Source: Nitrospirales bacterium
GTDB lineage: Bacteria > Nitrospirota > Nitrospiria > Nitrospirales > UBA8639
Length of the DNA: 64,000 bases
NCBI GenBank assembly: GCA_965223295.1
Contig: CBDCWC010000003.1
Span: forward strand, 1,408,001 to 1,472,000
Reading direction: 5' to 3'
Shown one piece after another: positions 36,978 to 58,060 of the stretch. A program made the position numbers and the translations under genes. Under the pieces are notes generated by a model that made no database searches, was not told the origin of the DNA, and worked only from the letters and a program-made list of their open reading frames with translations. Position 1 is the stretch's first letter; every line of letters starts with the position of its first letter.

Positions 36978-38279
36978 ATGTTGGATATTTCAGCATTTCG
37001 CGCACAAGTAAAAGAGATCCGAGAGTCGTTTCCGCATCATTGGGAAGCCAGTCGAAAGCTCATGGCTCCAGAATCTTTAGCCGCGACGCTCCCTTCGCTT
37101 ATCGACTCAATTCAACAAGCCTCGATTGGCCAACCTCTCCAACGACGTTTAATTGATGTGTTGGAACAATTTGGGAAACAAGCCAAAACCAAACAGGTGC
37201 GTGACGCTTTAAAAGATCTGACGGGGTTGCCGCCCTCTAAGGCTGTTCGTGCGTTAATTGTGTGGGGCCTTATGGCAAATCAAGAAAGGAGCGACGAAGT
37301 TGGGGACTCTCTTTCCGGAGCCCAACTCGAACGCTATGTGCGAGAAGGCCATAATCCCTATGATGTGCTGCTGCATGCTCGAGCCCCTTCTTTGCTTGAT
37401 ATTGGGGCAGGTGATTTAACATTTGAACAGGAATTAGTTGATCAATATCTTCCTCAATTACGGGGCCAATCCAAATCTCTGACCCTTCACGCCTTTGATC
37501 GGTTAACGCCTGGCTCGCAAGTCGGTGGGGTCTATCATAAAAACCAGGAGCGTGAGCAGTATTTAAAAAATTTTCCTGTAGAAGAGTTGAACTACAAATT
37601 TTGGGGGGGAATGGATCTCGAGAAATTTTGCCATGCGAAGGGTAGTTTGCCACGATACACTATTGCGACTTGTCATGCCCCTGCCAATCCTACATTTGCG
37701 TTTGAGCCAACCCGCTTTGACTCACACGTGATTCTTAAGCATCTGCAAGCAACCCGTGGCCAATTCAACCTGACTCGCTTTGATGGAGAGAAGGTATTAG
37801 AAGTGTCTCATCATGGGCAAACTCTCACGTTCCCGCCATGGAAATTCGATGTTGTTGGGCCCTTGGCGTTGTTGCAGACTATGGGGATTCGATCACGAAT
37901 GGGGGTGTTACCTGCGATTGATGATGAAGTGTTTTGGGAAATATTGAGTCAGTTATTGAAGGACGATGTCTATCGCCCCCACAACATTCTTTTTACTCCA
38001 GAGAACCTTCCAAAAATCTTCGGGGATGTCTATCATGACTTGTCTTTATTGGCAGTTGGTGAAAAAATAGACCTGTCGACGGTTGTCGATATCCGAATGT
38101 GTCTTTCTATGCACAGAACTTCTTTTGGAAAGACCGTAGCACCGGTCAAAATTCGCTATATAGAAGTTCGGCGAGGTGCCGTATGGGAGGGATTGCCCAG
38201 CAGTTTTACTGCACGCCAATTTTCTCGTATGGCAGAAGAATCCACACCCTGGTGGATTATCTTTGTGACAGATGTTTAG
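36978..38279 (+). CDS. Hypothetical protein with SAM-binding-like motif
   Basis: LLDIGAGDLTFE Rossmann motif; 433-aa ORF. Confidence 0.65.
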   Translation: MLDISAFRAQVKEIRESFPHHWEASRKLMAPESLAATLPSLIDSIQQASIGQPLQRRLIDVLEQFGKQAKTKQVRDALKDLTGLPPSKAVRALIVWGLMANQERSDEVGDSLSGAQLERYVREGHNPYDVLLHARAPSLLDIGAGDLTFEQELVDQYLPQLRGQSKSLTLHAFDRLTPGSQVGGVYHKNQEREQYLKNFPVEELNYKFWGGMDLEKFCHAKGSLPRYTIATCHAPANPTFAFEPTRFDSHVILKHLQATRGQFNLTRFDGEKVLEVSHHGQTLTFPPWKFDVVGPLALLQTMGIRSRMGVLPAIDDEVFWEILSQLLKDDVYRPHNILFTPENLPKIFGDVYHDLSLLAVGEKIDLSTVVDIRMCLSMHRTSFGKTVAPVKIRYIEVRRGAVWEGLPSSFTARQFSRMAEESTPWWIIFVTDV

Positions 38280-39928: not shown

Positions 39929-40597
39929 TTATTTTTTCTTGTACCCCATTCGATCTAAGACTTTCATAATCCGTTTCTGAAGTTTCTCGTCTGCGTCACC
40001 TAAGGCCTGCGCCAAGGGTTCGACAGCAGGTTTCCCAATTTTTCGCAAAATCTCCGTAGCCGATTGACGGAGTTCGTCTTCTTCGTTTGTTAAAAGTGGC
40101 ACAACTTCAAGCACGCATGGCGCTCCGATCTTAATGAGCGCGTCATAGGCACGTTGGCGGACATCACCCACTTCATCATTCAGCATCTCCACTAAAGGCT
40201 TCACGGCAGCTTCGACTTTGAGTTCGCCCAATACTTCAATCGCATGCTTGCGATTCAGCCAATGGGTATCATTAAGATCGAGGAGCGCGGCATCGGCTGC
40301 GGCCACATTGGGGTCTTTGGAACGGATGCGAAAACTTTTGACGATGCGTTTGCCTTCTTCTTCGACGACACGGAGGGTGGCGCCATCGCCAAGTTTGATT
40401 TTCTGTAAATCTTCAAGGGCTTCTTCGCCGACATCCAACAAGACGGTCTTGCCGTCGTAGGCCAACAACTCGACTTCGATTTGGTTGGTCTCTAAATTGA
40501 TCGCCGACACATTTTCAGTCACAAGATTAAAGCCATCTTTCTTGGTACCTGATTTGGGGCCGATGGAGATGAGTTGTGCAGGTGCTTCATTTGCCAT
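39929..40597 (-). CDS. HEAT-repeat protein with N-terminal beta-rich (OB-like) domain
   Basis: N-terminal ~90 aa of alternating beta-strand pattern, then HEAT units (LNDEVGDVRQRAYDALIKIG). Confidence 0.8.
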   Translation of the reverse strand: MANEAPAQLISIGPKSGTKKDGFNLVTENVSAINLETNQIEVELLAYDGKTVLLDVGEEALEDLQKIKLGDGATLRVVEEEGKRIVKSFRIRSKDPNVAAADAALLDLNDTHWLNRKHAIEVLGELKVEAAVKPLVEMLNDEVGDVRQRAYDALIKIGAPCVLEVVPLLTNEEDELRQSATEILRKIGKPAVEPLAQALGDADEKLQKRIMKVLDRMGYKKK

Positions 40598-40655
40598 GAT
40601 AATGATGTGTCCTCAGATAGAAAGTGAACAAGGCCAAAATATTAATTAACAATTG

Positions 40656-41423
40656 CTATTTTGAAGAACTCGGTGTCCAGCCTAAACTCGATAGTGCGCC
40701 CTCTGCGGTATCCCGAACCATTTCATTCTCATCTTCCAATAGGGGAACCAGAGAGTCGATCGCACGACTATTCTTTAATCGAGCCAAGGATTCGGCGGCA
40801 TTGCGGCGCACCAGCCAATCTTCATCAGCTAAAGCCTCGATGAGTGGATCTATGGACTCCGGGTCACCAATTTTTCCTAACGCTTCCGCTGCATGACGAC
40901 GGACAATCCAATTGGAGGCATGCAGGCCTTCGACTAAGGCCGTCGTGGCACGTGAATCGCCAAGTTTTTTCAAGACACGGGCGGCATCTTCCCGAAGAGT
41001 GGCATCCATTAACGCATCAACTAAACCAGGAACTGCGTCTGGATGACCGATGCGTTCTAACGCCCAAATCGCCGCCGTTTTTACTCCGCCATCTTTATCA
41101 TTCCTAAGGGCATCAATCAACGGTTCCACGGAATTGTGGGCCCGCAATTTCCCCAGCGCAGTGGCCGCCTGTTCCCGGACCGACCATTCATCATCCTCTT
41201 TGAGCGCCTCAATAAGAGGGTCAATCGCAGGTTCCCCGACTTGAACCAACGCGCTGGTCGCAGCTTCCCGAATCACGCAATCATCTTCCAAAAACATATC
41301 AATCAGCTTCGGGATTGCCTCTGCGCCCACTTCACCCAAACGAGAAGCCGCATGATCGCGTAGAGCTTCGTTGTCATCCCGAAGTGCCGACAGCAAGGGA
41401 TTAACTTTATTCTGTTCTGTCAT
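40656..41423 (-). CDS. HEAT-repeat (PBS-lyase-like) protein
   Basis: Regular ~31-aa units, e.g. LADEDWLVRRNAAESLARL. Confidence 0.88.
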   Translation of the reverse strand: MTEQNKVNPLLSALRDDNEALRDHAASRLGEVGAEAIPKLIDMFLEDDCVIREAATSALVQVGEPAIDPLIEALKEDDEWSVREQAATALGKLRAHNSVEPLIDALRNDKDGGVKTAAIWALERIGHPDAVPGLVDALMDATLREDAARVLKKLGDSRATTALVEGLHASNWIVRRHAAEALGKIGDPESIDPLIEALADEDWLVRRNAAESLARLKNSRAIDSLVPLLEDENEMVRDTAEGALSSLGWTPSSSK

Positions 41424-41429
41424 TGGCTC

Positions 41430-42515
41430 TTACTCCTTTCCAGCCCAAGCTTTTTCATCCATTTGTGCAGCGGCAGCCTCCAGTTTGTCAAGGATAACCC
41501 CGGAATTATAGGAAATTAATCCGTCACGGTCTTGCTTTAATCGTGCAAACAATTCGGCATGGGGCCGCAACACTTCCACATCTTTCACTTTTTCCAAGGC
41601 TTCCACCGCCAAAATGCGAAGAGGACGAATAGGAATGACTTCAATAAAGAGCTCTACAGGACGAGAATCGCCGATGAGCCCCAAAGATTTCAAGGCATGT
41701 TCCTTCACGCCCGTGTCCTTATCTGACCGTAATCGTTCCATGAGAGGTTCAACGGCTCGAACATCGCCAATTTTACCTAAGGTGTCAGCTACGGCTTCCC
41801 GCACGATCCAGTCGTCATCTTCCAAATATTCCAAAAGAATTTCGACGGCTGGTCGACCAATGTGGTGCAATTGAATCACCGTCTCTTGCCGGGCTCCTTC
41901 TTTCAACTCCGATTCTTCCACATCCCGTAAGTCATCCAAGAGTTGATCAATACGATCACGAATCGCCCCAAGTTTTCGGAGAGTATCAGTAGCCAAGTCA
42001 CGAAGGTTCGGATCAGCCATTGCATCGACAAAGGCATCGGCTGATCGGGGATCCAGGAGCTGAGACAAAATTTCAGCAGCTCGCTGACGAATAGATTCAT
42101 CAGGATCTTTCAGACGTTCCGACAGTGGCCCGATAGACGTGGGAATCACCCCTAATAACGCGGTCACACGTTCTTGAATTCGCTCATCGGTTAAATGTTC
42201 CAACAGTGCGGCTGCGGTGGGTTCATCCAGAACGCCGGCCAGGTGTTCCAGTGCATCCATTGTAGCCTGACGAACTTCTTCGTCCTCTTCTTTCATGAGC
42301 CCCGCGAGAGCCAGTCCTGCTCGAGGATCCCCTAGACGGGCGAGCATTCTAATGGCTTCAATTTTATAATGAGAAGTTCCGGTTTCAATGGCCTGAATAA
42401 TCGCTTCTACAGCTTTAGGTCCACCTTTCATACAAGTGGACGTGGCGCGCATACGCCGCCAATCTTCTTCGTGATCCAACTCGGAAATAATCGTTTCAAA
42501 CGTTTCTTTTGGCAT
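41430..42515 (-). CDS. HEAT-repeat (PBS-lyase-like) protein
   Basis: Units such as LEDDDWIVREAVADTLGKIGD; acidic. Confidence 0.88.
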   Translation of the reverse strand: MPKETFETIISELDHEEDWRRMRATSTCMKGGPKAVEAIIQAIETGTSHYKIEAIRMLARLGDPRAGLALAGLMKEEDEEVRQATMDALEHLAGVLDEPTAAALLEHLTDERIQERVTALLGVIPTSIGPLSERLKDPDESIRQRAAEILSQLLDPRSADAFVDAMADPNLRDLATDTLRKLGAIRDRIDQLLDDLRDVEESELKEGARQETVIQLHHIGRPAVEILLEYLEDDDWIVREAVADTLGKIGDVRAVEPLMERLRSDKDTGVKEHALKSLGLIGDSRPVELFIEVIPIRPLRILAVEALEKVKDVEVLRPHAELFARLKQDRDGLISYNSGVILDKLEAAAAQMDEKAWAGKE

Positions 42516-42529
42516 TACTGTTCATTTGG

Positions 42530-43636
42530 TTAGAGGCGAACTTGTCCAGGTCTCCATCCGAGGTGGGAAAGGGATTCCAATACATGATGACGGAGATTGT
42601 CATTCTTTGTGGTCTTCAACAGTTGCAATAATGGGGTTTTGGCGGCAGCCCCGAAATGTGTGAGTGCTTCGGCAGACTCTTGGCGGAGTAATGTGCTGCG
42701 CAAGGCATCCATAAGAACCGGAACCGCTTGTGGGTCACCAATCTTCGCCAAGGCTTTCACGGCGGCCTCTAAAGGCGGAAGTTCTTCTTTATATTTTGGG
42801 TCCGTGCAACCCTCCATGCGCTCCTCGTATGCGTCAGCTGGAAGCGATTGGACAAGGGCCATCAATGGAGGCAGAGCTTCAACTGCTCGTAAGTTCCCCA
42901 GAGCCTCAATGGCTTTCAGTTGTAACGATGGTGTGGTGAGGGCATCTATTAACAAGGGAACGGCATGAGGATTCCCAATCTCACCCAGGGCTCGTACGGC
43001 ATCTTGCCTCACCGCAGAGTCGGAATCGTTCGCCACAAGATTCATCAAGGGAGCCACCGCGACCTCAGGTTTCAAAAGCGAGAGGGCCTCAATTGCACGC
43101 AAGCGGACACGCCAGTTCGGATCCTCCAGTCCTTTCAGAAGGGGAGGAATGCTGACTTCACCCAGGGCTTGAATTGCGCGGCTAGCTTCGTCCCGAACGG
43201 CTGGAACTTTATCTTGAAGCAACAAGATTAATGTATCAATCGAACGCGGATCTTTGATACGTGTGAGGCCTTTGGCGGCAGACATGCGTACAATCCAATT
43301 GGGATTCAACAGGGCCGAGAGCAGGGGCTCAAAAACTTGTTCATCAGCAATATTTGCGAGAATAGACGCTGCCGTTTCTTGGACTTGCAAGTTCGGATCA
43401 TTCAGGCAAAAGCCTAATGAGAGCACAGCCGGTTGCCCTAGAGTAGTTAAGGAGGCTGCCGCTGCTTCCCGAACGGCACGGTCTGAATCTCGAAGCAAGC
43501 GAATCAAGGGTTGAATGCTTCGGGGGTCGTCAAATTGTCCGAGAGCAACGGCCGCATCTTCTCGGACGCCCCAATCTTCATCATCCAAGGCGGCAATATG
43601 TTCAGCGACGGAATCAGGCATGTGACTGTGAGCCAA
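42530..43636 (-). CDS. HEAT-repeat (PBS-lyase-like) protein
   Basis: Units such as LDDEDWGVREDAAVALGQF. Confidence 0.88.
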   Translation of the reverse strand: MAHSHMPDSVAEHIAALDDEDWGVREDAAVALGQFDDPRSIQPLIRLLRDSDRAVREAAAASLTTLGQPAVLSLGFCLNDPNLQVQETAASILANIADEQVFEPLLSALLNPNWIVRMSAAKGLTRIKDPRSIDTLILLLQDKVPAVRDEASRAIQALGEVSIPPLLKGLEDPNWRVRLRAIEALSLLKPEVAVAPLMNLVANDSDSAVRQDAVRALGEIGNPHAVPLLIDALTTPSLQLKAIEALGNLRAVEALPPLMALVQSLPADAYEERMEGCTDPKYKEELPPLEAAVKALAKIGDPQAVPVLMDALRSTLLRQESAEALTHFGAAAKTPLLQLLKTTKNDNLRHHVLESLSHLGWRPGQVRL

Positions 43637-43782
43637 AAAAATGGTTCAGCTTCCTTGTCGAAAATTAGCTGGTACCTTTTCAAACTACCTAGGGAAAACC
43701 CGAAGGTCGACGTTACCACACGATTTTTTTTGCGGTCAAACTGGAAGAAGCTAAGAGGAGAAGAGAATGATATTGATGGGAT

Positions 43783-44148
43783 TTAGACTGATCGAAAGAC
43801 GGCTAACAGATCACTTAACGTCAACATTTTCACTCGTAAGACTTCCCGTTCTGTATGGAGAATACGGGACTGATCTCCATTGCCAGGATTCTTGAGAAAA
43901 TCCTGACACATCGCTGTGATCCGTTGAAACTCCACTTCGGCTTTGTCTCTCACCACACGGTTGGTGGCCAGTAGTTCTGCAACTTGGTCGTGAGTCGTTG
44001 CCAAATGTTGTTGAAACTCCTGTTCGGGAAGTGAGCGCCGGTGCTCCTCGTCTAAACATCGATCAATATACTGGCCTAAGAACACATAAAATCGGAGTAC
44101 TGTTTCGGTCGTCGTAATGTGAGGTACGTTTGAATCTTGTTCAGTCAT
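43783..44148 (-). CDS. Hypothetical helical protein
   Basis: 121-aa ORF co-oriented with the HEAT genes; AAGG RBS. Confidence 0.65.
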   Translation of the reverse strand: MTEQDSNVPHITTTETVLRFYVFLGQYIDRCLDEEHRRSLPEQEFQQHLATTHDQVAELLATNRVVRDKAEVEFQRITAMCQDFLKNPGNGDQSRILHTEREVLRVKMLTLSDLLAVFRSV

Positions 44149-44287
44149 CGGAACGCCTTAAAATTAATTAGTTTGAGAAAAAACACAAACAAGTTTAGAC
44201 CAGAATAGCGGGAAATGTGAGTAAAATCTACAAGGAAAATGAGATAGAGCTGAAAACTATTGATATCTTATCATTGCTCAATAGTCT

Positions 44288-44310
44288 TTTGTAATCAAAG
44301 TGATTACAAA
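44288..44310. promoter_or_regulatory. Operator-like inverted repeat at the antitoxin start
   Basis: TTTGTAATCA-AAG-TGATTACAAA perfect 10-bp arms ending on the A of ATG. Confidence 0.65.
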
Positions 44311-44546
44311 TGGATAAAGACACCAGAAATGTGATGGTCCGGTTGCCCGTCAGAATGCAGAAAAAGCTTGAACAAGTCCCTGCAGGAGTTGATCCATAAA
44401 GAAATTGGATAATCAACCATGCTATTGAAAATTACTTGGAGGTGTATGATTGGCAAAAAAACGCATTCGTGAATACCTGAAAAAAGTCGAAAAGGGAGGG
44501 AAATTCTATACGACGGAGCAAGTCAATGATGTCTCGAATCCTTTAA
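44310..44546 (+). pseudogene. CopG/RHH-family antitoxin pseudogene
   Basis: MDKDTRNVMVRLPVRMQKKLEQV...*RNWIINHAIENYLEVYDWQK / RIREYLKKVEKGGKFYTTEQV; one in-frame stop, frameshifts, 3' end cut by the MITE. Confidence 0.7.
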
Positions 44547-44771
44547 GAGATTGTCGAATAATACAAAACACGAGAGACAAGCTTGCTCATGATCACGTCG
44601 GATAGCAACAGCTTCGGGGCGGTTCAAAAAAGTCCGCTCGCCTGCGCGAAGCCGCTTCGGCGAAGCCAGGTCCAGCAAGGCCACAGCCATTTTTGCGCGA
44701 GGAGCGTACTAGTCCTACGTGAGCACGGAACAATGGTGAGAACGGTGCTGGAGGCTTTTTTCAACAGCCCC
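44547..44771. mobile_element. MITE family A copy 4 (225 bp = 191 + 34-bp nested insert)
   Basis: Same core as copy 1; flanks TTTAA/TCTAA; extra sequence at 44637-44670. Confidence 0.8.
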
Positions 44772-44779
44772 TCTAAGCC

Positions 44780-44924
44780 ATGATGAAAGTTGTGTGGTAT
44801 TGAAGAAGCTCTCCGTGATCTCAAAGAAATTGGTCGGTAAATCGCTGAGGATGATCCATCTGCGGCCGACCAGGTACTTACTAAAATCGAAGCATCTACA
44901 AATTTTCCCCAACATCATTCGTAA
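44780..44924 (+). pseudogene. RelE/ParE-family toxin pseudogene (5' part)
   Basis: MMKVVW / EEALRDLKEIGR*IAEDDPSAADQVLTKIEAS; frameshift, stop and truncation. Confidence 0.7.
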
Positions 44925-44997
44925 TTCGTCTCTCGCCACTCTGACTCTAACCGTACAGGGAGCATCAGGCTGCGATGAGGGTAAAAACCAAGACTTC

Positions 44998-45216
44998 TTA
45001 TGCCCATGACCGTTTTGATCGATTGATCTTATTACCGGTAAAGTGCCCGCAGCGCACACAACAAATACAGAACGGGGTCAGTTCATTGTTCCAGTCAGAA
45101 TGAATGTAGTCCTCGGGCACGAAGCGATCCGGCCATTCGTGTGGATATCCTTCCTGCGATATGGTGTGTCCACACGAAGGATTTTTACATTCTATGACGC
45201 TGACGATCCGGCTCAT
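44998..45216 (-). CDS. Small Cys-rich putative zinc-ribbon protein
   Basis: CKNPSCGH ... CICCVRCGH; GAGGA upstream of the ATG. Confidence 0.4.
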   Translation of the reverse strand: MSRIVSVIECKNPSCGHTISQEGYPHEWPDRFVPEDYIHSDWNNELTPFCICCVRCGHFTGNKINRSKRSWA

Positions 45217-45300
45217 AGTCTATGCTGATCCTCACTGTGACACTGCACTTGTAATTCTATCACAGGTCGTATCTTAACGTATGTTCTTGCTTTCCTAAGA

Positions 45301-45376
45301 CAGACCCGAGGCCTCTGACATGTGACGTTGCAGAGGCTAAATGTGGCCATTGATGTCATCATTATTCAACACTCTT
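45301..45376. mobile_element. MITE family A copy 5 (truncated, right module only)
   Basis: CAGACCCGAGGCCTCTGACATGTGACGTTGCAGAGGCTAAATGTGGCCATTGATGTCATCATTATTCAACAC matches 27689-27764 and 47066-47141. Confidence 0.75.
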
Positions 45377-45422
45377 CTAGACGAAATAGGCAAATAGATT
45401 CTAGTCTGATTCTCAAAGAAAA

Positions 45423-46913
45423 CTACTTTCCGACTTCTTCCTTGAAGGATTTGAGGAGGGAGATGATGAGAAGGATAATGACGAAGACGAAGGGGAAGGC
45501 GGCGAGGATGGCACCGGTTTGGAGACCTTTAAGGCCGCCGGACCAGAGGAGAATGGCTGCGGAGAGGGATTGAATGATGCCCCACGTAAATTTGATGTGA
45601 TTGGGTGGGTTGAGGCTGCCGTTAGTAGTCAAGGTTCCTAATACAAAAGTGGCCGAATCAGCTGAGGTGATAAAAAACGTGCCGATGAGGAAGATGGCAA
45701 TGAGCGACATGATCGTGCCCATGGGATATTGTTCTAAGACTGTGAAGAGCAGCACTTCCATCCCCTGTGATTCCATAACTTCTTTTAATGGCACGTTCTG
45801 AAAAAGCTCTAGGGAAATTCCTGTCCCGCCAAAGACCGTAAACCAGAAGGCACAAAAGATGGAGGGGACCAGTAAGACGCCTAGGACAAATTGGCGTACT
45901 GTCCGGCCTTTAGAAATTCTCGCGATAAAGGTTCCCACAAATGGCGCCCAGGCAATCCACCAGGCCCAGTAAAAGAGGGTCCAATCATGAATCCAGGTGG
46001 AATCGCTAAATGGATCCAGGTTGAGACTCATCGTTGGGAGGTTTTGAAGGTAATGCCCAAAGGTTGATGAGAAGACCGTCATAATAAAGTGGGTGGGTCC
46101 TAGAAATAATAAGAAGCAGAGTAACGAAAGGGCCAGGATCATGTTCAAATTACTAAGGTATTTAATCCCTCGTTGGAGGCCTGTTTGGGCTGAGAGCATG
46201 AAGAGCACGGTGACGATGGCGATTAAGGTCAACTGCGTCGTCAGTAAGTTGGGAAGGTCAAATACGTAAGACAATCCCCCGCTAATCTGCACGGCCCCAA
46301 AGCCCAGTGATGTGGCCACGCCGAAGACGGTGGCAAAGACGGCCACCACATCCACAGCGTATCCTAGCGGCCCGGTCGCGTGTCTGCCCAAGGCAGGCTG
46401 ACAGCCCAGACTAAAGAGTCCGGGCGTACCTTTTCGAAATTGAAAATAGGCCAGGGCTAAGGCAACCATGGTGTAAATTCCCCAAGGGTGAAGTCCCCAA
46501 TGAAAAAAGGAATATTGGAGAGCCAGACGTGCTGCTTGGGATGTTCCTCCTTCTCCGAATGGCGGGTCATGAAAATGTGACGTGGGTTCGGCAACTCCCC
46601 AAAACACCAGCCCTATGCCCATGCCGGCGCAAAAGAGCATGGCAAACCAGGTGGGAAGGTTAAACTCTGGTTTGGCATCATCTGGTCCGAGTGGAATATC
46701 CCCCCACCGGGAAAAAATCAAACAAAGAGCGCAAAGAAGAAAGCTGGAAGCGGCTAACACATAAAGCCAACCAAAGGAATCTAACATGGCTGTCTGAAGG
46801 GAACCAGTGATAGTGGCCAAATGATCAGGTGCGATCCCACCCCACAAAAGGAACAGAAAGGCCAAGGAGCAGGAGATGTTAAAAACGAGGGTGTTGGATT
46901 TGAAAGGGTTCAT
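45423..46913 (-). CDS. BCCT-family transporter (glycine betaine, OpuD/BetP-like)
   Basis: WFAMLFCAGMGIGLVFWGVAEP, FHWGLHPW, WTLFYWAWWIAWAPFVGTFIARISKGRT, TSADS; ~12 TM. Confidence 0.92.
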   Translation of the reverse strand: MNPFKSNTLVFNISCSLAFLFLLWGGIAPDHLATITGSLQTAMLDSFGWLYVLAASSFLLCALCLIFSRWGDIPLGPDDAKPEFNLPTWFAMLFCAGMGIGLVFWGVAEPTSHFHDPPFGEGGTSQAARLALQYSFFHWGLHPWGIYTMVALALAYFQFRKGTPGLFSLGCQPALGRHATGPLGYAVDVVAVFATVFGVATSLGFGAVQISGGLSYVFDLPNLLTTQLTLIAIVTVLFMLSAQTGLQRGIKYLSNLNMILALSLLCFLLFLGPTHFIMTVFSSTFGHYLQNLPTMSLNLDPFSDSTWIHDWTLFYWAWWIAWAPFVGTFIARISKGRTVRQFVLGVLLVPSIFCAFWFTVFGGTGISLELFQNVPLKEVMESQGMEVLLFTVLEQYPMGTIMSLIAIFLIGTFFITSADSATFVLGTLTTNGSLNPPNHIKFTWGIIQSLSAAILLWSGGLKGLQTGAILAAFPFVFVIILLIISLLKSFKEEVGK

Positions 46914-46950
46914 TAATGAGGAGACCTAGCGCACTGAGTGTAGCCCTACC

Positions 46951-47141
46951 GGGTTTGTTGAAAAAAGCCGTCAACGGCGTTCTCGCTATTTTTCCGTGCT
47001 CACATAATGCCAGTATACTCCGCGCGCAAAAATAGCTGCGGCCTTGCTGAACGGACTTTTTTGAACAGCCCTGAGGCCTCTGGCATCTGAGGTCGCAGAG
47101 ACGAAATGTGGCCGTTGATATCGTTATTATTCAACAGTCCC
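46951..47141. mobile_element. MITE family A copy 6 (191 bp)
   Basis: GGGTTTGTTGAAAAAA...TTTTTTGAACAGCCC...TATTCAACAGTCCC; CTACC duplicated on both flanks. Confidence 0.88.
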
Positions 47142-47392
47142 CTACCATAAATAGTCGTAGTGAACAACAAAAAAGGACGAGATATAACGGATTTGAGCAG
47201 ACGTTAAAGTTATATATAACCGACCTTTTGGTTGGTAGTTTTGGGGAGATGGTCGACTTTTTATAAGTGTTAATTGCTAAGTTATTTGTGGAGGATTTCT
47301 TGTTTAATTCCATAATTTCTTGTGTTTAGTATCTAAAGGCTTGCTCTCATGGGCGTAAATGGTTACATTCAAAGCTCTTCGGTACGCAATCG

Positions 47393-47434
47393 GGCCTTCC
47401 AAACGCTCGCAAGAGAAGTTCGGGGGCCTTTTTT
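47393..47434 (+). terminator. Terminator-like hairpin in the leader of the betaine-synthesis gene
   Basis: GGCCTTC...CTC-GCAA-GAG...GGGGGCC followed by TTTTTT, ~150 nt before the ATG. Confidence 0.45.
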
Positions 47435-47587
47435 ATTTCCCAATCATTGGAGGAGTGCAGGAATTCCGCACAAATATTGTGGAACCATTCTTTTGTCATA
47501 TCCCCCTCAACATACTGTGGTCTTTTCTTGACTCTCTTTCATGGAAGAGGGGTTTAGGCGGCGGTGCTCTTTTAGGAGGTTAGTCCC

Positions 47588-49249
47588 ATGGGTAAGAAGC
47601 AAGCGTATGGAGATAATCCCATCGCCAAACGAAAAACGGACCTGTACAAGGAGGAGTACGTCCATAGTTTTGTCCAAAAATGGGATGACCTGATTGACTG
47701 GGAAGCACGGGCCTCGAGTGAAGGTGACTTTTTTATCCGATTGTTAAAGGAGCGGGGGGTCCAACGTATTTTAGACGTGGCAACGGGAACAGGGTTTCAT
47801 TCTATCAGGCTCCTTCGGGCAGGATTCGATGTCACCAGTGCCGACGGTAGTCCAGAAATGTTAGCTAGAGCGTTTGAAAATGCCAGGCGAGCGGGCTTTA
47901 TTATGCGGACCATTCATGCTGATTGGCGGTGGTTGAGCCGGGATATCCACAATAAATATGATGCAGTCATTTGTTTAGGGAATTCTCTAACCCATTTGTT
48001 TGCCGAACAAGACCGGCGAAAAGCTCTGGCGGAATTTTACACAGCGTTGAAACATGATGGTGTGCTCATTCTGGATCAACGGAATTACGATGGCATATTA
48101 GATGATGGCTTTACCTCCAAGCATGTTTATTACTATTGCGGAGATAATGTCAGCGCGGAACCAGAATATGTCGATGAAGGGCTCGCACGGTTTCGCTATA
48201 CCTTTCCTGATAAAGAAATATTTCATTTGAATATGTATCCCTTACGGAAAGAATATACGCGGCGCCTTATGAATGAGGTGGGGTTTCAACAGGTCAAAAC
48301 CTATGCGGATTTTCAAGAAACCCACAAAGTCGAGGATCCCGATTTTTATGTCCATGTGGCTGAAAAGCTCTATAAAAATGAGGAACGTCCAACAACAATC
48401 TTAGGTAATTTGGGAGGACAGGCCTATTCCACTACGGTTGATACGGCTCGTGAATACTACAACAGTACGGATGCCGATCGGTTTTATGCCACGATTTGGG
48501 GTGGCGAGGATATCCATATTGGACTCTATGAATCTGAGAATGATTCAATTCTTGATGCCAGTAGACGGACTGTGGAGAAGATGGCCTCGACCGTCCAGAA
48601 TCTTGATTCAAAAACCCGTGTGTTGGATATCGGATCGGGGTATGGGGGCTCAGCTCGCTATCTGATGAAGAAATTTGGCTGTCAGGTAGGTTGCCTGAAT
48701 TTGAGCGAGATTCAAAATAAGCGAAATCGGGAATTGAATCAAAAAGAAGGGATTAGCCTGGCCATTAATGTTATTGATGGGAGCTTTGAAGAGATTCCCT
48801 TACCCGATAGCAGCGTTGATCTGGTGTGGTCGCAAGATGCTATTCTGCATAGCGGCGACCGCAAGAAGGTGTTTGAGGAAGTCTCTCGTGTTTTGGCAAA
48901 AGGCGGGCAATTCATCTTTACCGACCCGATGCAAAGTGAAAAATGTCCGAAAGATGTCTTGCAGCCTATTTTGGATCGCATTCATTTAGATTCTTTGGGA
49001 TCGATTGAATATTATCAGAAAGTCGCCAAAAAATTTGGATTACAAGAAATCGGAGTTATCGACTTATCAAAAAATTTACCGGCCCACTATGCACGTGTGC
49101 TTCAAGAGCTTGTGGCTCAACATAACAATCTTATTCGTGTGTGTTCGGAAGAATACCTGGTCAATATGAAAGTTGGATTACAGCATTGGGTCGATGCGGG
49201 AATGTCAGGGCACTTGACCTGGGGAATTTTACATTTCCAAAAAACCTAG
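47588..49249 (+). CDS. Fused glycine/sarcosine and sarcosine/dimethylglycine N-methyltransferase (GSMT-SDMT)
   Basis: N-domain FVQKWDDLIDW, LDVATGTGFHS, CLGNS, DQRNYD; C-domain AREYYNSTDADRFYATIWGGEDIHIG, LDIGSGYGG, WSQDAILH; TAGGAGG RBS. Confidence 0.9.
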   Translation: MGKKQAYGDNPIAKRKTDLYKEEYVHSFVQKWDDLIDWEARASSEGDFFIRLLKERGVQRILDVATGTGFHSIRLLRAGFDVTSADGSPEMLARAFENARRAGFIMRTIHADWRWLSRDIHNKYDAVICLGNSLTHLFAEQDRRKALAEFYTALKHDGVLILDQRNYDGILDDGFTSKHVYYYCGDNVSAEPEYVDEGLARFRYTFPDKEIFHLNMYPLRKEYTRRLMNEVGFQQVKTYADFQETHKVEDPDFYVHVAEKLYKNEERPTTILGNLGGQAYSTTVDTAREYYNSTDADRFYATIWGGEDIHIGLYESENDSILDASRRTVEKMASTVQNLDSKTRVLDIGSGYGGSARYLMKKFGCQVGCLNLSEIQNKRNRELNQKEGISLAINVIDGSFEEIPLPDSSVDLVWSQDAILHSGDRKKVFEEVSRVLAKGGQFIFTDPMQSEKCPKDVLQPILDRIHLDSLGSIEYYQKVAKKFGLQEIGVIDLSKNLPAHYARVLQELVAQHNNLIRVCSEEYLVNMKVGLQHWVDAGMSGHLTWGILHFQKT

Positions 49250-49261
49250 AAGCATTAAGAA

Positions 49262-50650
49262 TTATCGTTCGATCTTGAGTGCTTTTGCGGGTTGAGCGAT
49301 ATCCCCGCTTTTCCCAAAGCGGCCTTCTCCTCCTTCACCCAGCACATTTGTCGTATCAGTATACTCAATTTCTTGGGCTTCTTTGCTCAGGCTATCTTTG
49401 GGTTGCCACCCTAGCTGATCTAGCGTATCTAAAATCACTTTTTTGAGAGCTCCTGATGCGGTCATGCGGGTGGTGGCGAATGCCAGCACCCGCTCGCTTT
49501 CTTTTTCTACCTTGGATAGATCTGGATCATGCAGAAAGGACACAAGAGGTTCAATGGCCGTATCGCCTATTAATACTAAGGAGTTTGCAGCATACTCACG
49601 CAGCACTAAATCTTTCAACAGCAAGATCAAGTCCGGAATGACTTTGGGGTGACGAAAATGGCCGAGGGCTGTTGCCGCGGCTTCTTTGATTAAAAGATCT
49701 TCGCTGATAATGCAGCCAGGGGTCGGTTTCCCTTCCTGTTGAAAGCCTTTTCCCTTTAAGGCTGCTAACACGGGAGGAAAGGCTCGAGGGTCTCCAATCA
49801 TTCCCAAGGAAGCGATGGCATGTCGTTTCACGGTCCCGTCCTTCATCGCTTCTATGAGTGCATCGACTGCCTCTGGGTCGCCAATATTGCCTAGGGCAAT
49901 GGTTGCATCCTCTCTCACGGCCCGATCCGGATCTTTGAGCATGGTGATCAGGGCATTCACGACTCGTGATTCTCTCACCCATACTTTGCCCATTTGATAG
50001 TCTGTGGTCATTCCGCCTAACGCACGGACTCCATGACAACGCACGACAAAATGAGGGTCTTTCAAGGTTTCGAGTAGAGCATCAACCGAGGGGGCTCCAA
50101 TATACATTAAGGCTGTCCCGGCAGTTTCACGAACAATTTTTGAGGTATCTTTAAACAGTTTAATGAGTGTTGGGATAGCTTGAGGGTCTCCGATTTTTCC
50201 CAGAGCTTCGGCCGCCGCACTCTTCACCGCGCCATCCCGATCTCGGCATACTACTATTAGTCCCTTTACGGCTTCAGAATCACGAAGTTCTCCTAGAGTC
50301 TTGGATGCTTGCTCTCGGACGCGCCATCGTTTGTCTTTGAGGCTTGCCAGTAATTTGGGTACGACGCCTTTGCCCATAGAGGCCATGGCTCGAACGGCCT
50401 CGGCCTGGACTTCCATCATGTTGTCATTAAAGAGCGTGATCAGGCCATCGATACTTTTCTCTCCACCAATTTTGGCAAGAGCCCATCCCACATGACTTCG
50501 CACGGCCCAATAGTCATCATCTAAGGCTGAGAGGAGGGGCTCCAACGTTTTTGGGTCCCCTTTTTCTGCAAGCGCTTTGGCCGCTTCTTCTCGGGTGGCA
50601 TCATCCACATCTTCGAGGGCATCGATCCAATCTTGAACAGAGTTCGCCAT
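49262..50650 (-). CDS. HEAT-repeat (PBS-lyase-like) protein
   Basis: About a dozen units, e.g. LKDPDRAVREDATIALGNIGD. Confidence 0.88.
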   Translation of the reverse strand: MANSVQDWIDALEDVDDATREEAAKALAEKGDPKTLEPLLSALDDDYWAVRSHVGWALAKIGGEKSIDGLITLFNDNMMEVQAEAVRAMASMGKGVVPKLLASLKDKRWRVREQASKTLGELRDSEAVKGLIVVCRDRDGAVKSAAAEALGKIGDPQAIPTLIKLFKDTSKIVRETAGTALMYIGAPSVDALLETLKDPHFVVRCHGVRALGGMTTDYQMGKVWVRESRVVNALITMLKDPDRAVREDATIALGNIGDPEAVDALIEAMKDGTVKRHAIASLGMIGDPRAFPPVLAALKGKGFQQEGKPTPGCIISEDLLIKEAAATALGHFRHPKVIPDLILLLKDLVLREYAANSLVLIGDTAIEPLVSFLHDPDLSKVEKESERVLAFATTRMTASGALKKVILDTLDQLGWQPKDSLSKEAQEIEYTDTTNVLGEGGEGRFGKSGDIAQPAKALKIER

Positions 50651-50673
50651 ATTGTGCCTTCAAAATGCCTTAG

Positions 50674-51156
50674 TTAGTTCCGTAAATAATCTGGTTCTTG
50701 CGGATAGGGTTGCGTATGGCTGCAACGGATAGTCAATTTTTCGGAACCCCGGCCATTCACACACTGGTCGAGCGTTTTCGCAAAATCCAATGTTCCGGAA
50801 AGCGTCACCTTAAATAAAAAATCGAAGGTGAATGTTCCAAACCGATATTCCCCAGGCTTCAATTTTAACTCTTTGATGTCAGTGGTTTTGTACGCATCCA
50901 TGTTAATGGGATCCTTGGTCCAAATTAACGGTGTGATGCCTGGCACATGCCACCACGTTGGAGGATTTAACGCACTGGGGTCGACCGTAATGGAAAATTC
51001 ACGTAGTAAAGGATTCGTGGGTTCAGCCGCTTCCGCGACTAATGCGAATGCTGTTATCGACAGACAAATCAGAGAGAGACAGAGACTGCGCTTCAATGAA
51101 TTGTTTTGAGGATTTTCGAGCATGATTGATTTATTGATAAATTTTTTCGAGTTCAT
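50674..51156 (-). CDS. Hypothetical exported protein
   Basis: Hydrophobic signal ending AEA, beta-rich mature part with a Cys pair; start probably ATG 51123. Confidence 0.65.
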   Translation of the reverse strand: MNSKKFINKSIMLENPQNNSLKRSLCLSLICLSITAFALVAEAAEPTNPLLREFSITVDPSALNPPTWWHVPGITPLIWTKDPINMDAYKTTDIKELKLKPGEYRFGTFTFDFLFKVTLSGTLDFAKTLDQCVNGRGSEKLTIRCSHTQPYPQEPDYLRN

Positions 51157-52183
51157 TTTCCGTCGTTCGCCGTTGAGGTGTGGATTGAAAAATTTCTTTG
51201 ATTGCTTGGCTTTCCCATTCTGTGTGTGTTTGGAGGCCTAGAGCGTACATAATGGTCGCGCTCGTATCCAGCAGGGTCACGTCCTGGGCAATCGCATGGT
51301 GCTTTTTCACATTGGTTCCCCATGCAATCAAAGGGATTGTGGGATCTAGCTCGACTGTTTCCCCCTTTTTGACTTTCTTGGTAAGAGGATTGAGTGGGCC
51401 GCCGTTTAATCCTGTCACGATAAACATGGTTTTGTCCAAGACTCCAATTTCCTCATAATTCTTTATGATTTGGTAAATGGCCGTATCGACAGAGGTCACC
51501 GCTGCGGCATATTTTGGCGAGTCCCACCCATACTTTTCGCCAACGCGTGCGGCAGTGGGGAAATGAGCAACTAGTAGGTTAGGGACTCCAAAGAGCCGGA
51601 AGCCATGTCCGCCATCACCGGTGACTTTTCTGAGGAAATCTTGAATGTAGACTGAGACGGTTTCGGGTGTACATTGTGGTTTGGTATAGCCACAGACTTG
51701 AGAGTCAACATAAATTTCTGGACGAACCAGCTGATACAGCCGTTCGTCCATGAGGAACACACCTGTGTCAGCCCCGCCAGCGAGGTCCATATAATCAAAG
51801 ACTGTAGGGGAACGCATAAACGAACGGGCAAAGTCATAGTCTTCCCAGGCGGCGGTGACACGATGTTTTTCCACTGGCAGTCCGGTCAGCAACGAGGCCA
51901 TGGCCGAGACAGTCAGGGGAGGGGTAATGGATTGTGCAGACCAAGAAACTGCGCCCTCTTCGGCAAGCTTAGCCAGTTGAGGAGTCGCACCGTTTTGGAT
52001 TGTCGATGATTTGATTCCTTCGAGAACGACAAGAACAATATGTTCCGCTTGTGTGGCTGTTGCCGCGCTAGTAGCAGTATTGATTCCACCCAAACTGAGC
52101 CATAAAAGATTGAGGGCAACAAAAGACATTTTGGGTAAGGTTTTTGCCAATTCCCAGCTGGACCGATGCCGAAAAATACTCAT
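51131..52183 (-). CDS. Alkaline-phosphatase / nucleotide-pyrophosphatase superfamily protein, metal ligands degenerate
   Basis: HIVLVVLEGI, TPQLAKLAEEG, PPLTVSAMASLLTG, VDTAI...TMFIVT, IPLIAWG, LLDTSATI; signal peptide. Confidence 0.8.
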   Translation of the reverse strand: MSIFRHRSSWELAKTLPKMSFVALNLLWLSLGGINTATSAATATQAEHIVLVVLEGIKSSTIQNGATPQLAKLAEEGAVSWSAQSITPPLTVSAMASLLTGLPVEKHRVTAAWEDYDFARSFMRSPTVFDYMDLAGGADTGVFLMDERLYQLVRPEIYVDSQVCGYTKPQCTPETVSVYIQDFLRKVTGDGGHGFRLFGVPNLLVAHFPTAARVGEKYGWDSPKYAAAVTSVDTAIYQIIKNYEEIGVLDKTMFIVTGLNGGPLNPLTKKVKKGETVELDPTIPLIAWGTNVKKHHAIAQDVTLLDTSATIMYALGLQTHTEWESQAIKEIFQSTPQRRTTENELEKIYQ

Positions 52184-52464: not shown

Positions 52465-53742
52465 ATGCCTCAAAATAACAATTTTCAGCATTCCCAATAT
52501 TCTCGTTCCAATCCTGGAGAACGAGTCTCCTATCCAACGTTTAAGCCTGGTAGTCCCATTAATTCCTCAGCTTGGAAGGAAGCCATGGCTCAGCTTGGAA
52601 ACCAATTGTCCAGATCTCACGTCAAAGGCCTTGTATTTGTCAGTGGACATCCCTATTCCGACCTATTTGGTTCGGCTCGCTTAGATGAAGTCGGGGGCTT
52701 AAAACGTGGTTATTCAAGGGGGATTTCAGGATTAGAGTCATTGTTGGCTCTTCTTCGGCCGTCCACGAATGGCATTGGAAACACTGATGATCCCATCCAT
52801 CCACCGCTGACAAATGATACATCGACCCATGAGCTATTGGATGGTCTTGCTCAAGAGGTTGGGAATTTTACGATGAACTATGTGAAGAAGTTCCAGGAAG
52901 GGTTAAATCCGGAAGGGAAGGTGGCCATGCCTTGTCATCGATATGTCTGGTCATCCGTTCATCATCATCTTGGGCGAATAGAAGCCGCAGTTGCTTTTGT
53001 CGAGTTCCTAGAGGGATGGGGCAATGATCTTTCACTCGCTCAGAGTGATCGGATTTTGCTGGTTGCACATGGACATGCGGGGCAGGTGTTAGCTCTGGTT
53101 TCTAATCTCATTACTTCTGGTGAATCTGAGGGTCGTCCAAGAATTTTTGAAATTTTAGCGAAATTCTGGGAGGTCAGCCCGAGTGAGGTTCGGTCTGTCG
53201 AGCGATTGGAGAAACTCTATCCGGCACTAGCCAAGCAACAATTTTTGGGTGGTGCTTCTGTCGATATGGTGACCTTAGGTACCCCGGTTCGATATGGATG
53301 GGATACCGATGGAGTTAGTCGCTTGCTGCATATTGTCAATCACCGAGGGATTCGGCACGATGGAAAACGATGGTTGTCCAAGATGGAATTGCCCCAGACG
53401 GCGTGGGAGATGCCTTATCTGACGGGCGGTGACTATGTTCAACAATTAGCTGTGGCGGGCACGGACGTTCTACCGGATTCTCCTGAAATGGAGCTGGCCA
53501 ATGTGGATCTTAGAGAATTATTAGAGCCCTACGATGGGTTTGAGCGGTGGCTAGAATGTACCAGGCGGACTACACGATGTTCGAACGATGGACAATGCGT
53601 GTTAGTTGACTATGGGGTACAAGCGTCGGAAGAAAAGCCAAGGCAGCATTTGTATGGTCATGGATGCTATACGCGGAGTCGGGCCATGGAGTTTTTAGCA
53701 AAAGAAATCGCGAAGTCGATGTATCCTGATCACGTGGGTTAA
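52465..53742 (+). CDS. Hypothetical protein, alpha/beta-hydrolase-like
   Basis: RILLVAHGHAGQV elbow-like motif and MVTLGTP strand. Confidence 0.65.
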   Translation: MPQNNNFQHSQYSRSNPGERVSYPTFKPGSPINSSAWKEAMAQLGNQLSRSHVKGLVFVSGHPYSDLFGSARLDEVGGLKRGYSRGISGLESLLALLRPSTNGIGNTDDPIHPPLTNDTSTHELLDGLAQEVGNFTMNYVKKFQEGLNPEGKVAMPCHRYVWSSVHHHLGRIEAAVAFVEFLEGWGNDLSLAQSDRILLVAHGHAGQVLALVSNLITSGESEGRPRIFEILAKFWEVSPSEVRSVERLEKLYPALAKQQFLGGASVDMVTLGTPVRYGWDTDGVSRLLHIVNHRGIRHDGKRWLSKMELPQTAWEMPYLTGGDYVQQLAVAGTDVLPDSPEMELANVDLRELLEPYDGFERWLECTRRTTRCSNDGQCVLVDYGVQASEEKPRQHLYGHGCYTRSRAMEFLAKEIAKSMYPDHVG

Positions 53743-57938: not shown

Positions 57939-58060
57939 GGGCCTGTTGAAAAAATCCGCCAGCGGCGTTCTCGCCATTTTTGAACAGCCCCCAGGCTGTT
58001 GATCGCCAAGAGCTTCATGGCGAAATATGCCCCTTGATATCTTCATTATTCAATACTCCC
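57939..58060. mobile_element. MITE family A copy 7 (122 bp, internal deletion)
   Basis: GGGCCTGTTGAAAAAA...CCATTTTTGAACAGCCCC...TATTCAATACTCCC; CTTCA duplicated on both flanks. Confidence 0.85.

Follow-up and report, generated by a model that had tools for sequence, protein, structure and literature searches.

In the window, the 64,000-nucleotide stretch of Nitrospirales DNA analysed here, five HEAT-repeat proteins are encoded which, to judge from sequence comparison, constitute a core unit of ancient single-copy paralogues of the PBS-lyase/alphaRep type (H462, H368, H361, H255 and H222, named after their lengths in amino acids). An initial sequence-only reading of the region had proposed an undescribed multi-gene HEAT module. 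The gene order is kept in three families, and no paper treating the cluster was found in the accessible portions of the full-text literature on Nitrospira HEAT/PBS-lyase proteins and bacterial HEAT operons, which agrees with that proposal. The five proteins carry no export signal or membrane segment when the sequences are read by eye, and they are predicted to be soluble, acidic and cytoplasmic. The explanation put first here, at slightly less than an even chance, is that they act jointly as a cytoplasmic hetero-oligomeric alpha-solenoid scaffold or assembly chaperone holding an abundant client.

In soils, oceans and wastewater plants, Nitrospira dominate among the nitrite oxidisers, and their order also includes the comammox Nitrospira. 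A five-protein set that is universal in the families bearing nitrite oxidoreductase (NXR), missing from their relatives and as abundant as a ribosomal protein (four of the five, in the one proteome examined) is a conspicuous gap in the cell biology of an organism central to the nitrogen cycle. HEAT assemblies of several subunits are well known from eukaryotes; in bacteria, the cyanobacterial bilin lyases are the only well-understood ones known to us. A five-membered HEAT assembly in a non-phototroph, if true, would widen the prokaryotic roles of the fold.

Composition of the cluster

All five minus-strand genes described in the sequence-only reading encode proteins scoring above the Pfam cut-offs, both for HEAT_2 (PF13646; 60.9-263.3 bits vs a gathering cut-off of 27.7) and for HEAT_PBS (PF03130; 32.3-174.7 bits vs 20.9). 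HEAT_2 matches 15 open frames of the 3.78-Mb genome, 5 of them within these 12 kb, and since the order of these genes is also conserved in three families, the clustering is not due to chance. The coordinates of the open reading frames (Table 1) reproduce the reported spacers of 14, 6 and 58 bp along H368, H361, H255 and H222 as well as the ~5-kb interruption, with 5.1 kb between H462 and the 121-aa ORF and a further 146 bp between this ORF and H368, upstream of which it lies. The true start of H368 is likely the ATG at 43621, because conservation is seen from residue 6 onward. A promoter/terminator scan gave counts no higher than the shuffle expectation, and an Rfam search of the window returned two tRNAs and nothing else.

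Table 1. Features of the HEAT cluster and its insertion, in window coordinates.
Feature	Position	Strand	Description
H222	39929-40597	-	Predicted OB-fold N-domain, then four HEAT repeats; Pfam HEAT_2 E = 1.4e-16
OB-fold barrel of H222, residues ~20-95	40313-40540	-	Predicted structure and fold matches
H255	40656-41423	-	About eight 31-residue HEAT repeats; HEAT_2 E = 6e-50
H361	41430-42515	-	HEAT protein, middle segment non-repeat; HEAT_2 E = 3.4e-41
H368	42530-43636	-	HEAT protein; HEAT_2 E = 2e-60
Insertion splitting the module	43783-49249	both strands	Absent from the H462/H368 junction in 7/10 f2 and 5/5 f3 loci
121-aa ORF	43783-44148	-	Inside insertion; no Pfam family
BCCT transporter	45423-46913	-	Inside insertion; Pfam/NCBIfam
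Fused glycine/sarcosine and sarcosine/dimethylglycine methyltransferase	47588-49249	+	Inside insertion; Pfam/NCBIfam
H462	49262-50650	-	Largest of the five HEAT proteins; HEAT_2 E = 1e-79
E160	50674-51156	-	Small protein, hydrophobic N-terminal segment, no Pfam family
AP350	51131-52183	-	Alkaline-phosphatase superfamily (Phosphodiest 7.9e-19; Sulfatase 2.9e-12), hydrophobic N-terminal segment

Gene order, insertion and abundance

Across families, the order H368-H361-H255-H222 was observed in all 25 related 20-kb loci, with H462 lying within the examined DNA in 21 of the 25. In the sister family (f2), the genes AP350-E160-H462-H368-H361-H255-H222 are contiguous and run in one direction in 10/10 loci, and in the third family (f3) the spacers separating the five HEAT genes measure 0-22 nt in 5/5 loci. 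The stop codon of H361 overlaps the start of H255 by 4 or 8 nt in 18/25 related loci, and a gene for UDP-glucose dehydrogenase (UGDH) is convergent to H222 in every one of the 25. The five paralogues are mutually 25-36% identical, whereas the f2 orthologues are 46-76% identical to those of the window, and therefore each paralogue represents a separate orthologue line. The f2 identity of UGDH (64-69%) is similar to the range of the HEAT orthologues.

The interruption between H462 and H368 is, on comparison with relatives, a lineage-specific insertion comprising the 121-aa gene, a BCCT transporter, a betaine methyltransferase and MITE-like repeats, because the seven genes are contiguous in f2 and the HEAT genes are packed in f3. 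The insertion is missing at this junction in 7/10 f2 loci and 5/5 f3 loci; it contains fragments of a ~190-nt repeat that is dispersed. Inserts recur at the same place (1.5-3.8 kb in 3/10 f2 loci; 3.8-9.3 kb in f1, the family of the window), and thus the five HEAT genes need not be one transcript. The 121-aa protein had been counted as a member of the cluster; this assignment is abandoned, because its homologues in other families have a HEAT neighbour in 0/10 loci, which places it as a genus-level insert outside the unit.

All five HEAT orthologues were detected in the proteome of N. marina (PMC8115632, supplementary file 4). The corresponding consecutive genes (2597410737-740 and 746) encode proteins of 222, 256, 363, 381 and 462 aa, and their neighbours in N. 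marina encode UGDH, proteins of 121 and 157 aa, GSMT and a phosphodiesterase (PMC8115632). Four of the HEAT proteins reached NSAF values of 0.08-0.20 vs 0.15-0.24 for ribosomal protein L2, NxrA (0.25-0.35) and Pol I (0.004-0.011) serving as further comparisons, and the H368 orthologue was 4-10 times less abundant than the other HEAT proteins (PMC8115632). These values say little about stoichiometry, because the unrelated neighbour UGDH is similarly abundant (NSAF 0.11-0.13; PMC8115632). The supplement to the N. moscoviensis proteome (PMC9381531) lists no protein under the name HEAT or PBS lyase, and its udg row is without a locus tag. Among sequencing runs, three metatranscriptome runs held next to none of the words of the stretch, and four DNA-type runs, all from one study, carried it.

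The same data bear on another explanation, namely that the five are independent protein binders, co-located paralogues of one regulon with separate targets and no common complex. The low mutual identity of the paralogues, to which the HEAT ORF o290 elsewhere in the genome is equally close, the kb-scale insertions tolerated at one junction and the unequal abundances, with H368 low, would be expected of such proteins. However, order and adjacency persist in three families with orthologue identities to the window proteins of 41-76%, stop and start codons overlap, and each locus examined has kept the full set of five genes, so that independent action is considered unlikely.

Distribution and relation to nitrite oxidoreductase

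Of 121 genomes from the order, 115 carry the N-terminal domain of H222, including 46/47 of f1, 47/47 of f2 and 21/21 of f3. The domain was not found in the 5 genomes of f4, a family also without NxrA, where H361 and H462 gave weak partial HEAT matches vs 6.9e-85 and 4.9e-134 in the f3 control. Among 151 genomes of other Nitrospirota a single marginal match to the domain was obtained, and the close clusters of the ESM Atlas belong to Nitrospirota only, plus one lead in Sysuimicrobiota. The five HEAT paralogues thus appear, from these searches, to be specific to the NXR-bearing families of Nitrospirales. Three genomes (G102, G051 and G111) contain the module and give no NxrA match; NxrB is present in them at 94-95% identity, and they are therefore search or assembly misses that reveal no decoupling of the module from NXR. 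A further genome, G025, yielded a 23-residue fragment only.

An NXR-specific factor, along the lines of the speculation in the sequence-only reading, which would mature, proof-read or organise the periplasmic enzyme before its Tat export, would account for the presence of both NxrA and the module in f1-f3, the absence of both from f4 and the absence of the module from the other Nitrospirota sampled. Moreover, the abundance of the module is of the same order as that of the NXR subunits, and the nearness to nxrAB seen in the sequence-only reading (~6 kb) is correct for this genus, nxrA starting 6.3 kb beyond AP350 in the window. This nearness is not conserved, however, as the distance from nxrA to H222 is 40 kb to ~1 Mb in complete f2 genomes. 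The co-distribution amounts to one phylogenetic contrast, and no HEAT protein is known to us as a chaperone of Mo-enzymes; an NXR-specific role is therefore judged improbable. No better chance is given to the broader proposal of a Nitrospirales-specific, abundant cytoplasmic alpha-solenoid machine, with one OB-fold and two Cys-loop proteins among its subunits, that arose with, and is required for, the nitrite-oxidising way of life, for example by holding NXR, a different signature complex of respiration or their cofactors and delivering them before export. The clade restriction reflects a single evolutionary event and therefore gives no pointer to the client. If the delivery of NXR or another complex were true, the module would represent a new class of bacterial HEAT-repeat assembly factor.

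Folds, conserved residues and neighbours

The strongest sequence and fold matches of the cluster proteins are to the 31-residue repeats of alphaRep/MTH187 (H462 vs 9sah_A, 1.2e-65; H222 repeats vs 8aw4_B, Z 12.8, rmsd 4.8 over 110 residues). The alphaReps are binders built by consensus design, and for MTH187 no function is known; these matches account for the fold, not the role. Deoxyhypusine hydroxylase shares the HEAT-repeat fold as well (4d4z_A, E 3.9e-9; Z 10.9, rmsd 5.0 over 124 residues). This HEAT-repeat di-iron enzyme is defined by four repeated His-Glu metal motifs, whereas the alignments of the HEAT proteins contain no repeated invariant His-Glu pairs and one HEE only, at the N-terminus of H361. 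A role in anti-phage defence was rejected, as PADLOC gave repeat-level partial matches only (HEAT-ARM_XIII over ~100-230 of 1972 positions; the HEAT part of HEAT_CxxC_PD-DEXK) and the cluster has no nuclease or other effector.

The best characterised natural matches are the CpcE/CpcF-type lyases and NblB, PDB 5n3u being among the closest, which share the PBS-lyase HEAT-like repeat (PF03130/PF13646). The CpcE/CpcF-type lyases are adjacent paralogues acting as heteromers. They are two in number, whereas Nitrospirales have five, one with a predicted OB-fold domain, and the host is a non-phototrophic nitrite oxidiser. A cofactor-handling enzyme or lyase, that is, an E/F-lyase-like heteromer carrying or attaching a tetrapyrrole or metal via loop cysteines, would suit this kinship and the one invariant Cys in each of H462 and H368. 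However, the NCBIfam scores fall far under the family cut-offs (CpcE 47.9-118.8 vs 330, four of five matching; CpcF 17.9-83.3 vs 220; NblB 26.3-104.3 vs 300; CpeY 16.0-47.4 vs 600, four of five matching), and an Fe-S site would need more than two cysteines. No match to phycobiliprotein (PF00502) or ferredoxin-dependent bilin reductase (PF05996) was obtained in the 100%-complete genome, whereas both were matched in the Synechococcus elongatus control, which extends to the whole genome the earlier remark that no phycobiliprotein gene was seen. A lyase-like role is accordingly regarded as improbable.

The AlphaFold model of H222 (pLDDT 84.5) has strands at residues 23-92 and helices at 96-216, and the N-domain modelled alone (pLDDT 77.6) is a five-stranded barrel in which a helix separates strands 3 and 4. 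Its best VIA-align match is the OB domain of LEF-3 (7yny_A, Z 8.9, rmsd 2.7 over 74 residues), followed by the OB folds of SSB, PriB, AspRS and SilF; 157 chains reach a Z of at least 5, the matches listed being mostly OB domains of SSB, PriB, RPA and aaRS, and Foldseek returned CusF (E 7.1e-5). Because the Z values are middling, the domain is assigned from its model to the OB fold at the level of fold class only. It shares the barrel and the strand 3/4 helix with small OB domains (SSB/PriB, AspRS anticodon-binding, CusF/SilF) but differs from them in belonging to no sequence family and in being acidic (pI 4.85). In an alignment read by eye, it lacks the Met/His/Cys ligands expected for metal binding of the CusF kind. 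Among 1.84 billion proteins, a profile search returned no more than 42 representatives with E<=1e-3. As regards a TOBE/Mop identity, the Pfam TOBE match (PF03459) was sub-threshold and confined to one f2 orthologue (E 0.17, 12.6 bits vs a cut-off of 22.3), and no TOBE chain occurred among the fold matches listed.

The C-terminal motifs first noticed by reading alone are all present in the translations. LSSLGWTP ends H255 (G248 invariant and W249 in at least 90% of a 24-sequence alignment), LSHLGWRP ends H368 (GW in 25/26), and in H462 the LGW of LDQLGWQP, at 413-415, is followed by a 45-residue tail. LDRMGYKKK ends H222, LDRMGYK.K being invariant in 26 orthologues that are 59-98% identical to the window H222. 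H361, for which a 26-sequence alignment was made, was reported as the sole one of the five without an LGW motif, the H222 end being LDRMGYKKK. W249 of H255 keeps the 31-residue register with N218 and the invariant repeat-turn residues D187 and D156, and therefore LGWxP is read as a probable truncated last repeat in which an aromatic residue replaces the turn Asp. A docking peptide is not needed to explain it, as the distances of W249 from N218 and D187, 31 and 62 residues, are exact multiples of the repeat length, and a generic end of HEAT proteins was rejected, since none of the genome's five other HEAT ORFs has the motif.

Both of the Cys-containing loops described earlier, QEGKPTPGCII in H462 and EERMEGCTDPKY in H368, were found. 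The former, G307-x-P-x-P-G-C313-I-x-S-E317 at 49700-49732, is invariant in a 20-sequence alignment at G307, P309, P311, G312, C313, I314, S316 and E317, as are L413, G414 and W415; the latter, at 42791-42826, carries Cys277. Features outside the repeat scaffold are thus invariant (C313 in 20/20 and C277 in 26/26 aligned sequences), and a face of the OB domain is conserved. In the scaffold or chaperone explanation preferred here, the five proteins would bind one another and would hold the client as, by analogy, CpcE/CpcF-type HEAT pairs hold theirs. The part of H222 would be recognition, through its OB-fold module, while H462 and H368 would each expose a single invariant cysteine from an inserted loop. 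In this genome the module is split at the H462/H368 junction by an osmolyte (BCCT plus betaine synthesis) insertion.

AP350 and E160 had been presented as exported partners of the HEAT proteins, where "exported" refers to hydrophobic N-terminal segments read by eye only. Their adjacency to the HEAT genes holds in f1 and f2, in which E160 adjoins AP350 and H462 in 16 loci, and fails in f3, where the homologues of AP350, those of E160 and the HEAT cluster are all found on separate contigs; both are accessory neighbours of the HEAT unit. An envelope system, in which the HEAT proteins, the putatively exported AP350 and E160 and UGDH would serve cell-surface polymer synthesis, draws on the position of AP350-E160 directly upstream of H462 in these loci and on the convergent UGDH, but it is very improbable given the separate f3 contigs, HEAT proteins devoid of export signals, and a convergent adjacency that is no proof of co-transcription. 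E160 has no Pfam match even at E<=10. AP350 matches PF01663 with 68.9 bits vs a cut-off of 23, and in a low-scoring alignment with NPP chains its residues E, A..E and L..N stand opposite D (IDG), D..H (VDEAGH) and DH (SDHG), which are presumably the metal ligands of the NPP chain.

The HEAT module and its gene order

The five-gene HEAT-repeat module of the window (H222, H255, H361, H368 and H462, named by length in residues) is real, conserved and expressed, and the sequence-only reading was in that respect right in outline. The system can be described as a putative multi-paralogue PBS-type HEAT assembly, and a full-text literature search found no paper on this cluster. The points added here are the split arrangement with an osmolyte insertion, the neighbourhood of AP350 and E160 in two families only, the invariant Cys loops, the register of the LGW motif (a C-terminal LxxLGWxP-type string), the absence of the module from a family without nitrite oxidoreductase (NXR), and the abundance comparison. 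All five proteins match HEAT_2/HEAT_PBS in Pfam (E 1.4e-16 to 1e-79). In sequence comparison they come nearest to the alphaRep proteins, which are designed; the nearest natural chains are MTH187, deoxyhypusine hydroxylase and CpcE.

Genes of the HEAT cluster region in the window (G000:C3:1408001-1472000; genome of 3.78 Mb, three contigs, 100% complete)
Gene	Position	Strand	Description
H222	39929-40597	-	HEAT protein
H255	40656-41423	-	HEAT protein
H361	41430-42515	-	HEAT protein
H368	42530-43636	-	HEAT protein
121-aa ORF	43783-44148	-	
BCCT transporter	45423-46913	-	
Methyltransferase	47588-49249	+	fused glycine/sarcosine + sarcosine/dimethylglycine N-methyltransferase
H462	49262-50650	-	HEAT protein
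E160	50674-51156	-	
AP350	51131-52183	-	

The listed TTG start of H368 (43619-43636) is probably too far upstream, and conservation among orthologues begins at an ATG five codons downstream, at 43621. A sixth HEAT_2 protein of the window (4243-5034, minus strand, 263 aa, E 1.2e-48) lies outside the cluster and has no LGW end. The region is flanked by two conserved proteins without a Pfam family (36978-38279, 433 aa; 52465-53742, 425 aa), both of which keep their positions in the window's family (f1), the 425-aa one also in f2.

Gene order was compared in 20-kb stretches around orthologues from 25 genomes of three families of Nitrospirales, ORFs being assigned by best BLASTP match to the window proteins. 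All 25 loci have the order H368-H361-H255-H222, and after it a convergent gene for UDP-glucose dehydrogenase (UGDH). At 18 of them the end of H361 and the beginning of H255 overlap, by 4 or 8 nt (start codons were script-assigned and are approximate). The 10 loci of family f2 read AP350-E160-H462-H368-H361-H255-H222, on a single strand throughout. At the five f3 loci, H368-H462-H361-H255-H222 follow directly on polA, and neighbouring genes overlap or are 0-22 nt apart. In f1 the module is broken between H462 and H368, by 3.8 kb carrying BCCT and methyltransferase genes in a sister genus and by 5.3-9.3 kb, with the 121-aa gene in addition, in the window's genus. In one genus with small genomes, about 9 kb separate AP350/E160 from H368. 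The H462/H368 junction also carries inserts of 1.5-3.8 kb in 3/10 f2 loci, and two transcription units probably meet there.

Protein anatomy, abundance and a candidate function

The five HEAT proteins share 25-36% pairwise identity, and another HEAT ORF of the genome, outside the cluster, is as close to them as they are to one another, which indicates that they are old paralogues. All are acidic (pI 4.65-5.43), and no N-terminal hydrophobic segment is present in any of their sequences. Identity of the f2 orthologues to the window proteins is 73-76% for H222, 64-68% for H462, 62-66% for H255, 57-63% for H361 and 46-51% for H368, with 64-69% for UGDH and 38-44% for AP350.

The H222 model (pLDDT 84.5) has a beta-barrel at residues 23-92 and, after it, eight helices that make up four repeats. 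The barrel modelled alone (pLDDT 77.6) matched OB folds. LEF-3 ranked first (Z 8.9, 74 residues at rmsd 2.7), and behind it came PilY2, SSB/PriB, the anticodon-binding domains of aaRS, and SilF; Foldseek returned CusF (E 7.1e-5). The barrel is thus predicted to be an OB fold, the middling Z values speaking for fold class only. It is acidic (pI 4.85), and its invariant residues include F23, Y47, K50, K68, R76, R84 and R92. The H462 loop G-x-P-x-P-G-C-I-x-S-E (residues 307-317) is invariant in 20/20 sequences, and Cys277 of H368 in 26/26, its surrounding loop being otherwise variable.

The strings quoted in the sequence-only reading are all present in the window proteins. Little or no variation is seen in the C-terminal motif: L413 G414 W415 in H462, GW in 25/26 H368 sequences, an invariant G248 with W249 at 90% or more in H255, and LDRMGYK.K in H222. 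H361 lacks the motif, as do the genome's five other HEAT ORFs. Counted in steps of 31 residues, the H255 Trp falls exactly in line with D156, D187 and N218 of the repeat turns, and the motif can therefore be read as a last repeat, truncated and aromatic-capped. On sequence grounds, it would be a mark common to the family, not an established docking peptide.

Expression was taken from supplementary file 4 of the N. marina proteome (PMC8115632), and genes were matched to those of the window on their order and length rather than on sequence. In that file, IMG gene 2597410736 is a UDP-glucose dehydrogenase (443 aa), 2597410737-740 are HEAT proteins of 222, 256, 363 and 381 aa, in that order, 741 is a hypothetical protein (121 aa), 745 a glycine/sarcosine methyltransferase, 746 a HEAT protein (462 aa), 747 a hypothetical protein (157 aa) and 748 a type I phosphodiesterase (351 aa); the order 736-748 is that of the window's genus. 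Genes 736-741 and 745-748 were detected in all six samples, the 121-aa protein included. NSAF values were 0.11-0.20 (222 aa), 0.12-0.15 (256 aa), 0.08-0.105 (363 aa), 0.013-0.038 (381 aa) and 0.12-0.154 (462 aa), to be compared with 0.15-0.24 for ribosomal protein L2, 0.16-0.35 for the NxrA copies and 0.004-0.011 for DNA polymerase I. None of the five was marked significant between the two oxygen conditions (PMC8115632). In this one proteome, the protein levels are high and constitutive. A search of sequencing runs listed none of RNA for the organism of the window.

Five ancient paralogues are kept together, with tight or overlapping junctions, a clade-restricted distribution and invariant features outside the repeat scaffold. 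PBS-type HEAT proteins elsewhere include the CpcE/F heteromers, the chaperone-like CpeZ, and NblB. By analogy with these known roles, the module may form a hetero-oligomeric alpha-solenoid in the cytoplasm that serves an abundant client as scaffold or chaperone, a reading held tentatively, at a little under even chances. In such a scaffold the OB domain of H222 would be a recognition module, and the loop cysteines of H462 and H368 could make cofactor or redox contacts. That the five are independent binders, divergent as they are and kept together as they are, seems unlikely.

Distribution and relation to NXR

The first 100 residues of H222, which are distinctive, served as the distribution probe. 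It was found in 115 of 121 genomes of Nitrospirales, one per genome (f1 46/47, f2 47/47, f3 21/21, f4 0/5). A phylum-wide draw gave 14/14 in f1 and 35/35 in f2, with a single marginal match (E 3.5e-4) in 151 other genomes. The profile of the H222 N-domain has only 42 representatives among 1.84 billion proteins, many of them short fragments. In the ESM Atlas, neighbours that score above 0.9 are clusters from Nitrospirota, apart from one H361 neighbour, a cluster of Ca. Sysuimicrobiota (387 aa, 52 members, score 0.96), which is a possible out-of-phylum relative. Records 75-96% identical to window proteins and labelled Nitrospinaceae, Thermodesulfobacteriota or Nitrospinae are probably binning or labelling inconsistencies, not occurrences in other phyla.

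Four f4 genomes gave H361 and H462 only weak, partial HEAT matches (f3 control, 6.9e-85 and 4.9e-134). NxrA was found in 100 of the 121 genomes and in none of the five of f4. Four of the NxrA misses were followed up; they are not true absences, since NxrB is present in three of them (94-95% identity) and G025, the fourth, shows only a fragment. The module and NXR co-occur at family level, which amounts to one contrast on the tree. A factor specific to NXR would agree with this co-occurrence; such a factor is rather improbable. The proximity to nxrAB pointed out in the sequence-only reading is not conserved and the link is unsupported, the distance being 6 kb in the window, 17-25 kb in two relatives and, in the complete genomes of f2, between 40 kb and about 1 Mb. 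The window's genome encodes nxrA twice, with 100% identical proteins (window 58510-61947 and G000:C3:403922-407356).

A cofactor lyase-like enzyme, to which CpcE and the invariant cysteines might point, is slightly less probable still. A bilin lyase system was rejected, NCBIfam scores being far under the cut-offs and the complete genome lacking phycobiliproteins and ferredoxin-dependent bilin reductases (Synechococcus control positive). Deoxyhypusine hydroxylase was rejected as well, its repeated invariant His-Glu motifs being missing, as was a defence system for the HEAT cluster.

Neighbouring genes and a dispersed repeat

AP350 (alkaline-phosphatase superfamily) and E160 (small, without family), each with an N-terminal hydrophobic segment, had been proposed as exported partners. 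They do stand beside the HEAT genes in f1 and f2, but in f3 their homologues lie on separate contigs, both differing from that of the cluster, and the partnership was overstated; they are accessory neighbours at most. An envelope system comprising AP350, E160 and UGDH, the last adjacent at every locus, is accordingly the least probable reading and very unlikely. When AP350 is aligned with NPP chains of the Xanthomonas type, its E, A..E and L..N stand opposite the motifs IDG, VDEAGH and SDHG, which carry metal ligands in NPP, and a Thr stands at the aligned nucleophile position; judged from this alignment, it may be a catalytically altered member of its superfamily.

The 121-aa protein, for which there is no Pfam model, has homologues in 36/41 related genomes, including 3/5 of the NXR-less family, with two copies in some f2 genomes. 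It was wrongly counted as a cluster member and is placed outside the module, because none of 10 loci outside the window's genus carries a HEAT gene within 10 kb of it.

The osmolyte module (45423-49249) consists of a BCCT transporter gene divergent from that of a fused two-domain glycine-to-betaine methyltransferase (553 aa), and only in the marine family is it inserted into the HEAT cluster. A dispersed repeat of about 190 nt has its reference copy at 46951-47154, further copies at 2468-2653 and 27574-27764, and partial copies at 34108-34218, 44670-44766, 45300-45374 and 57944-58062. Within its own genome, blastn gave 299 HSPs, 133 of them of at least 150 nt, on both large contigs and equally often on either strand; loci of other genera and of f2 were also matched. 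The repeat is predicted to form a long hairpin (MFE -64.5 kcal/mol) and looks MITE/REP-like. Within the H462/H368 insert, the BCCT gene has pieces of this repeat on both sides.
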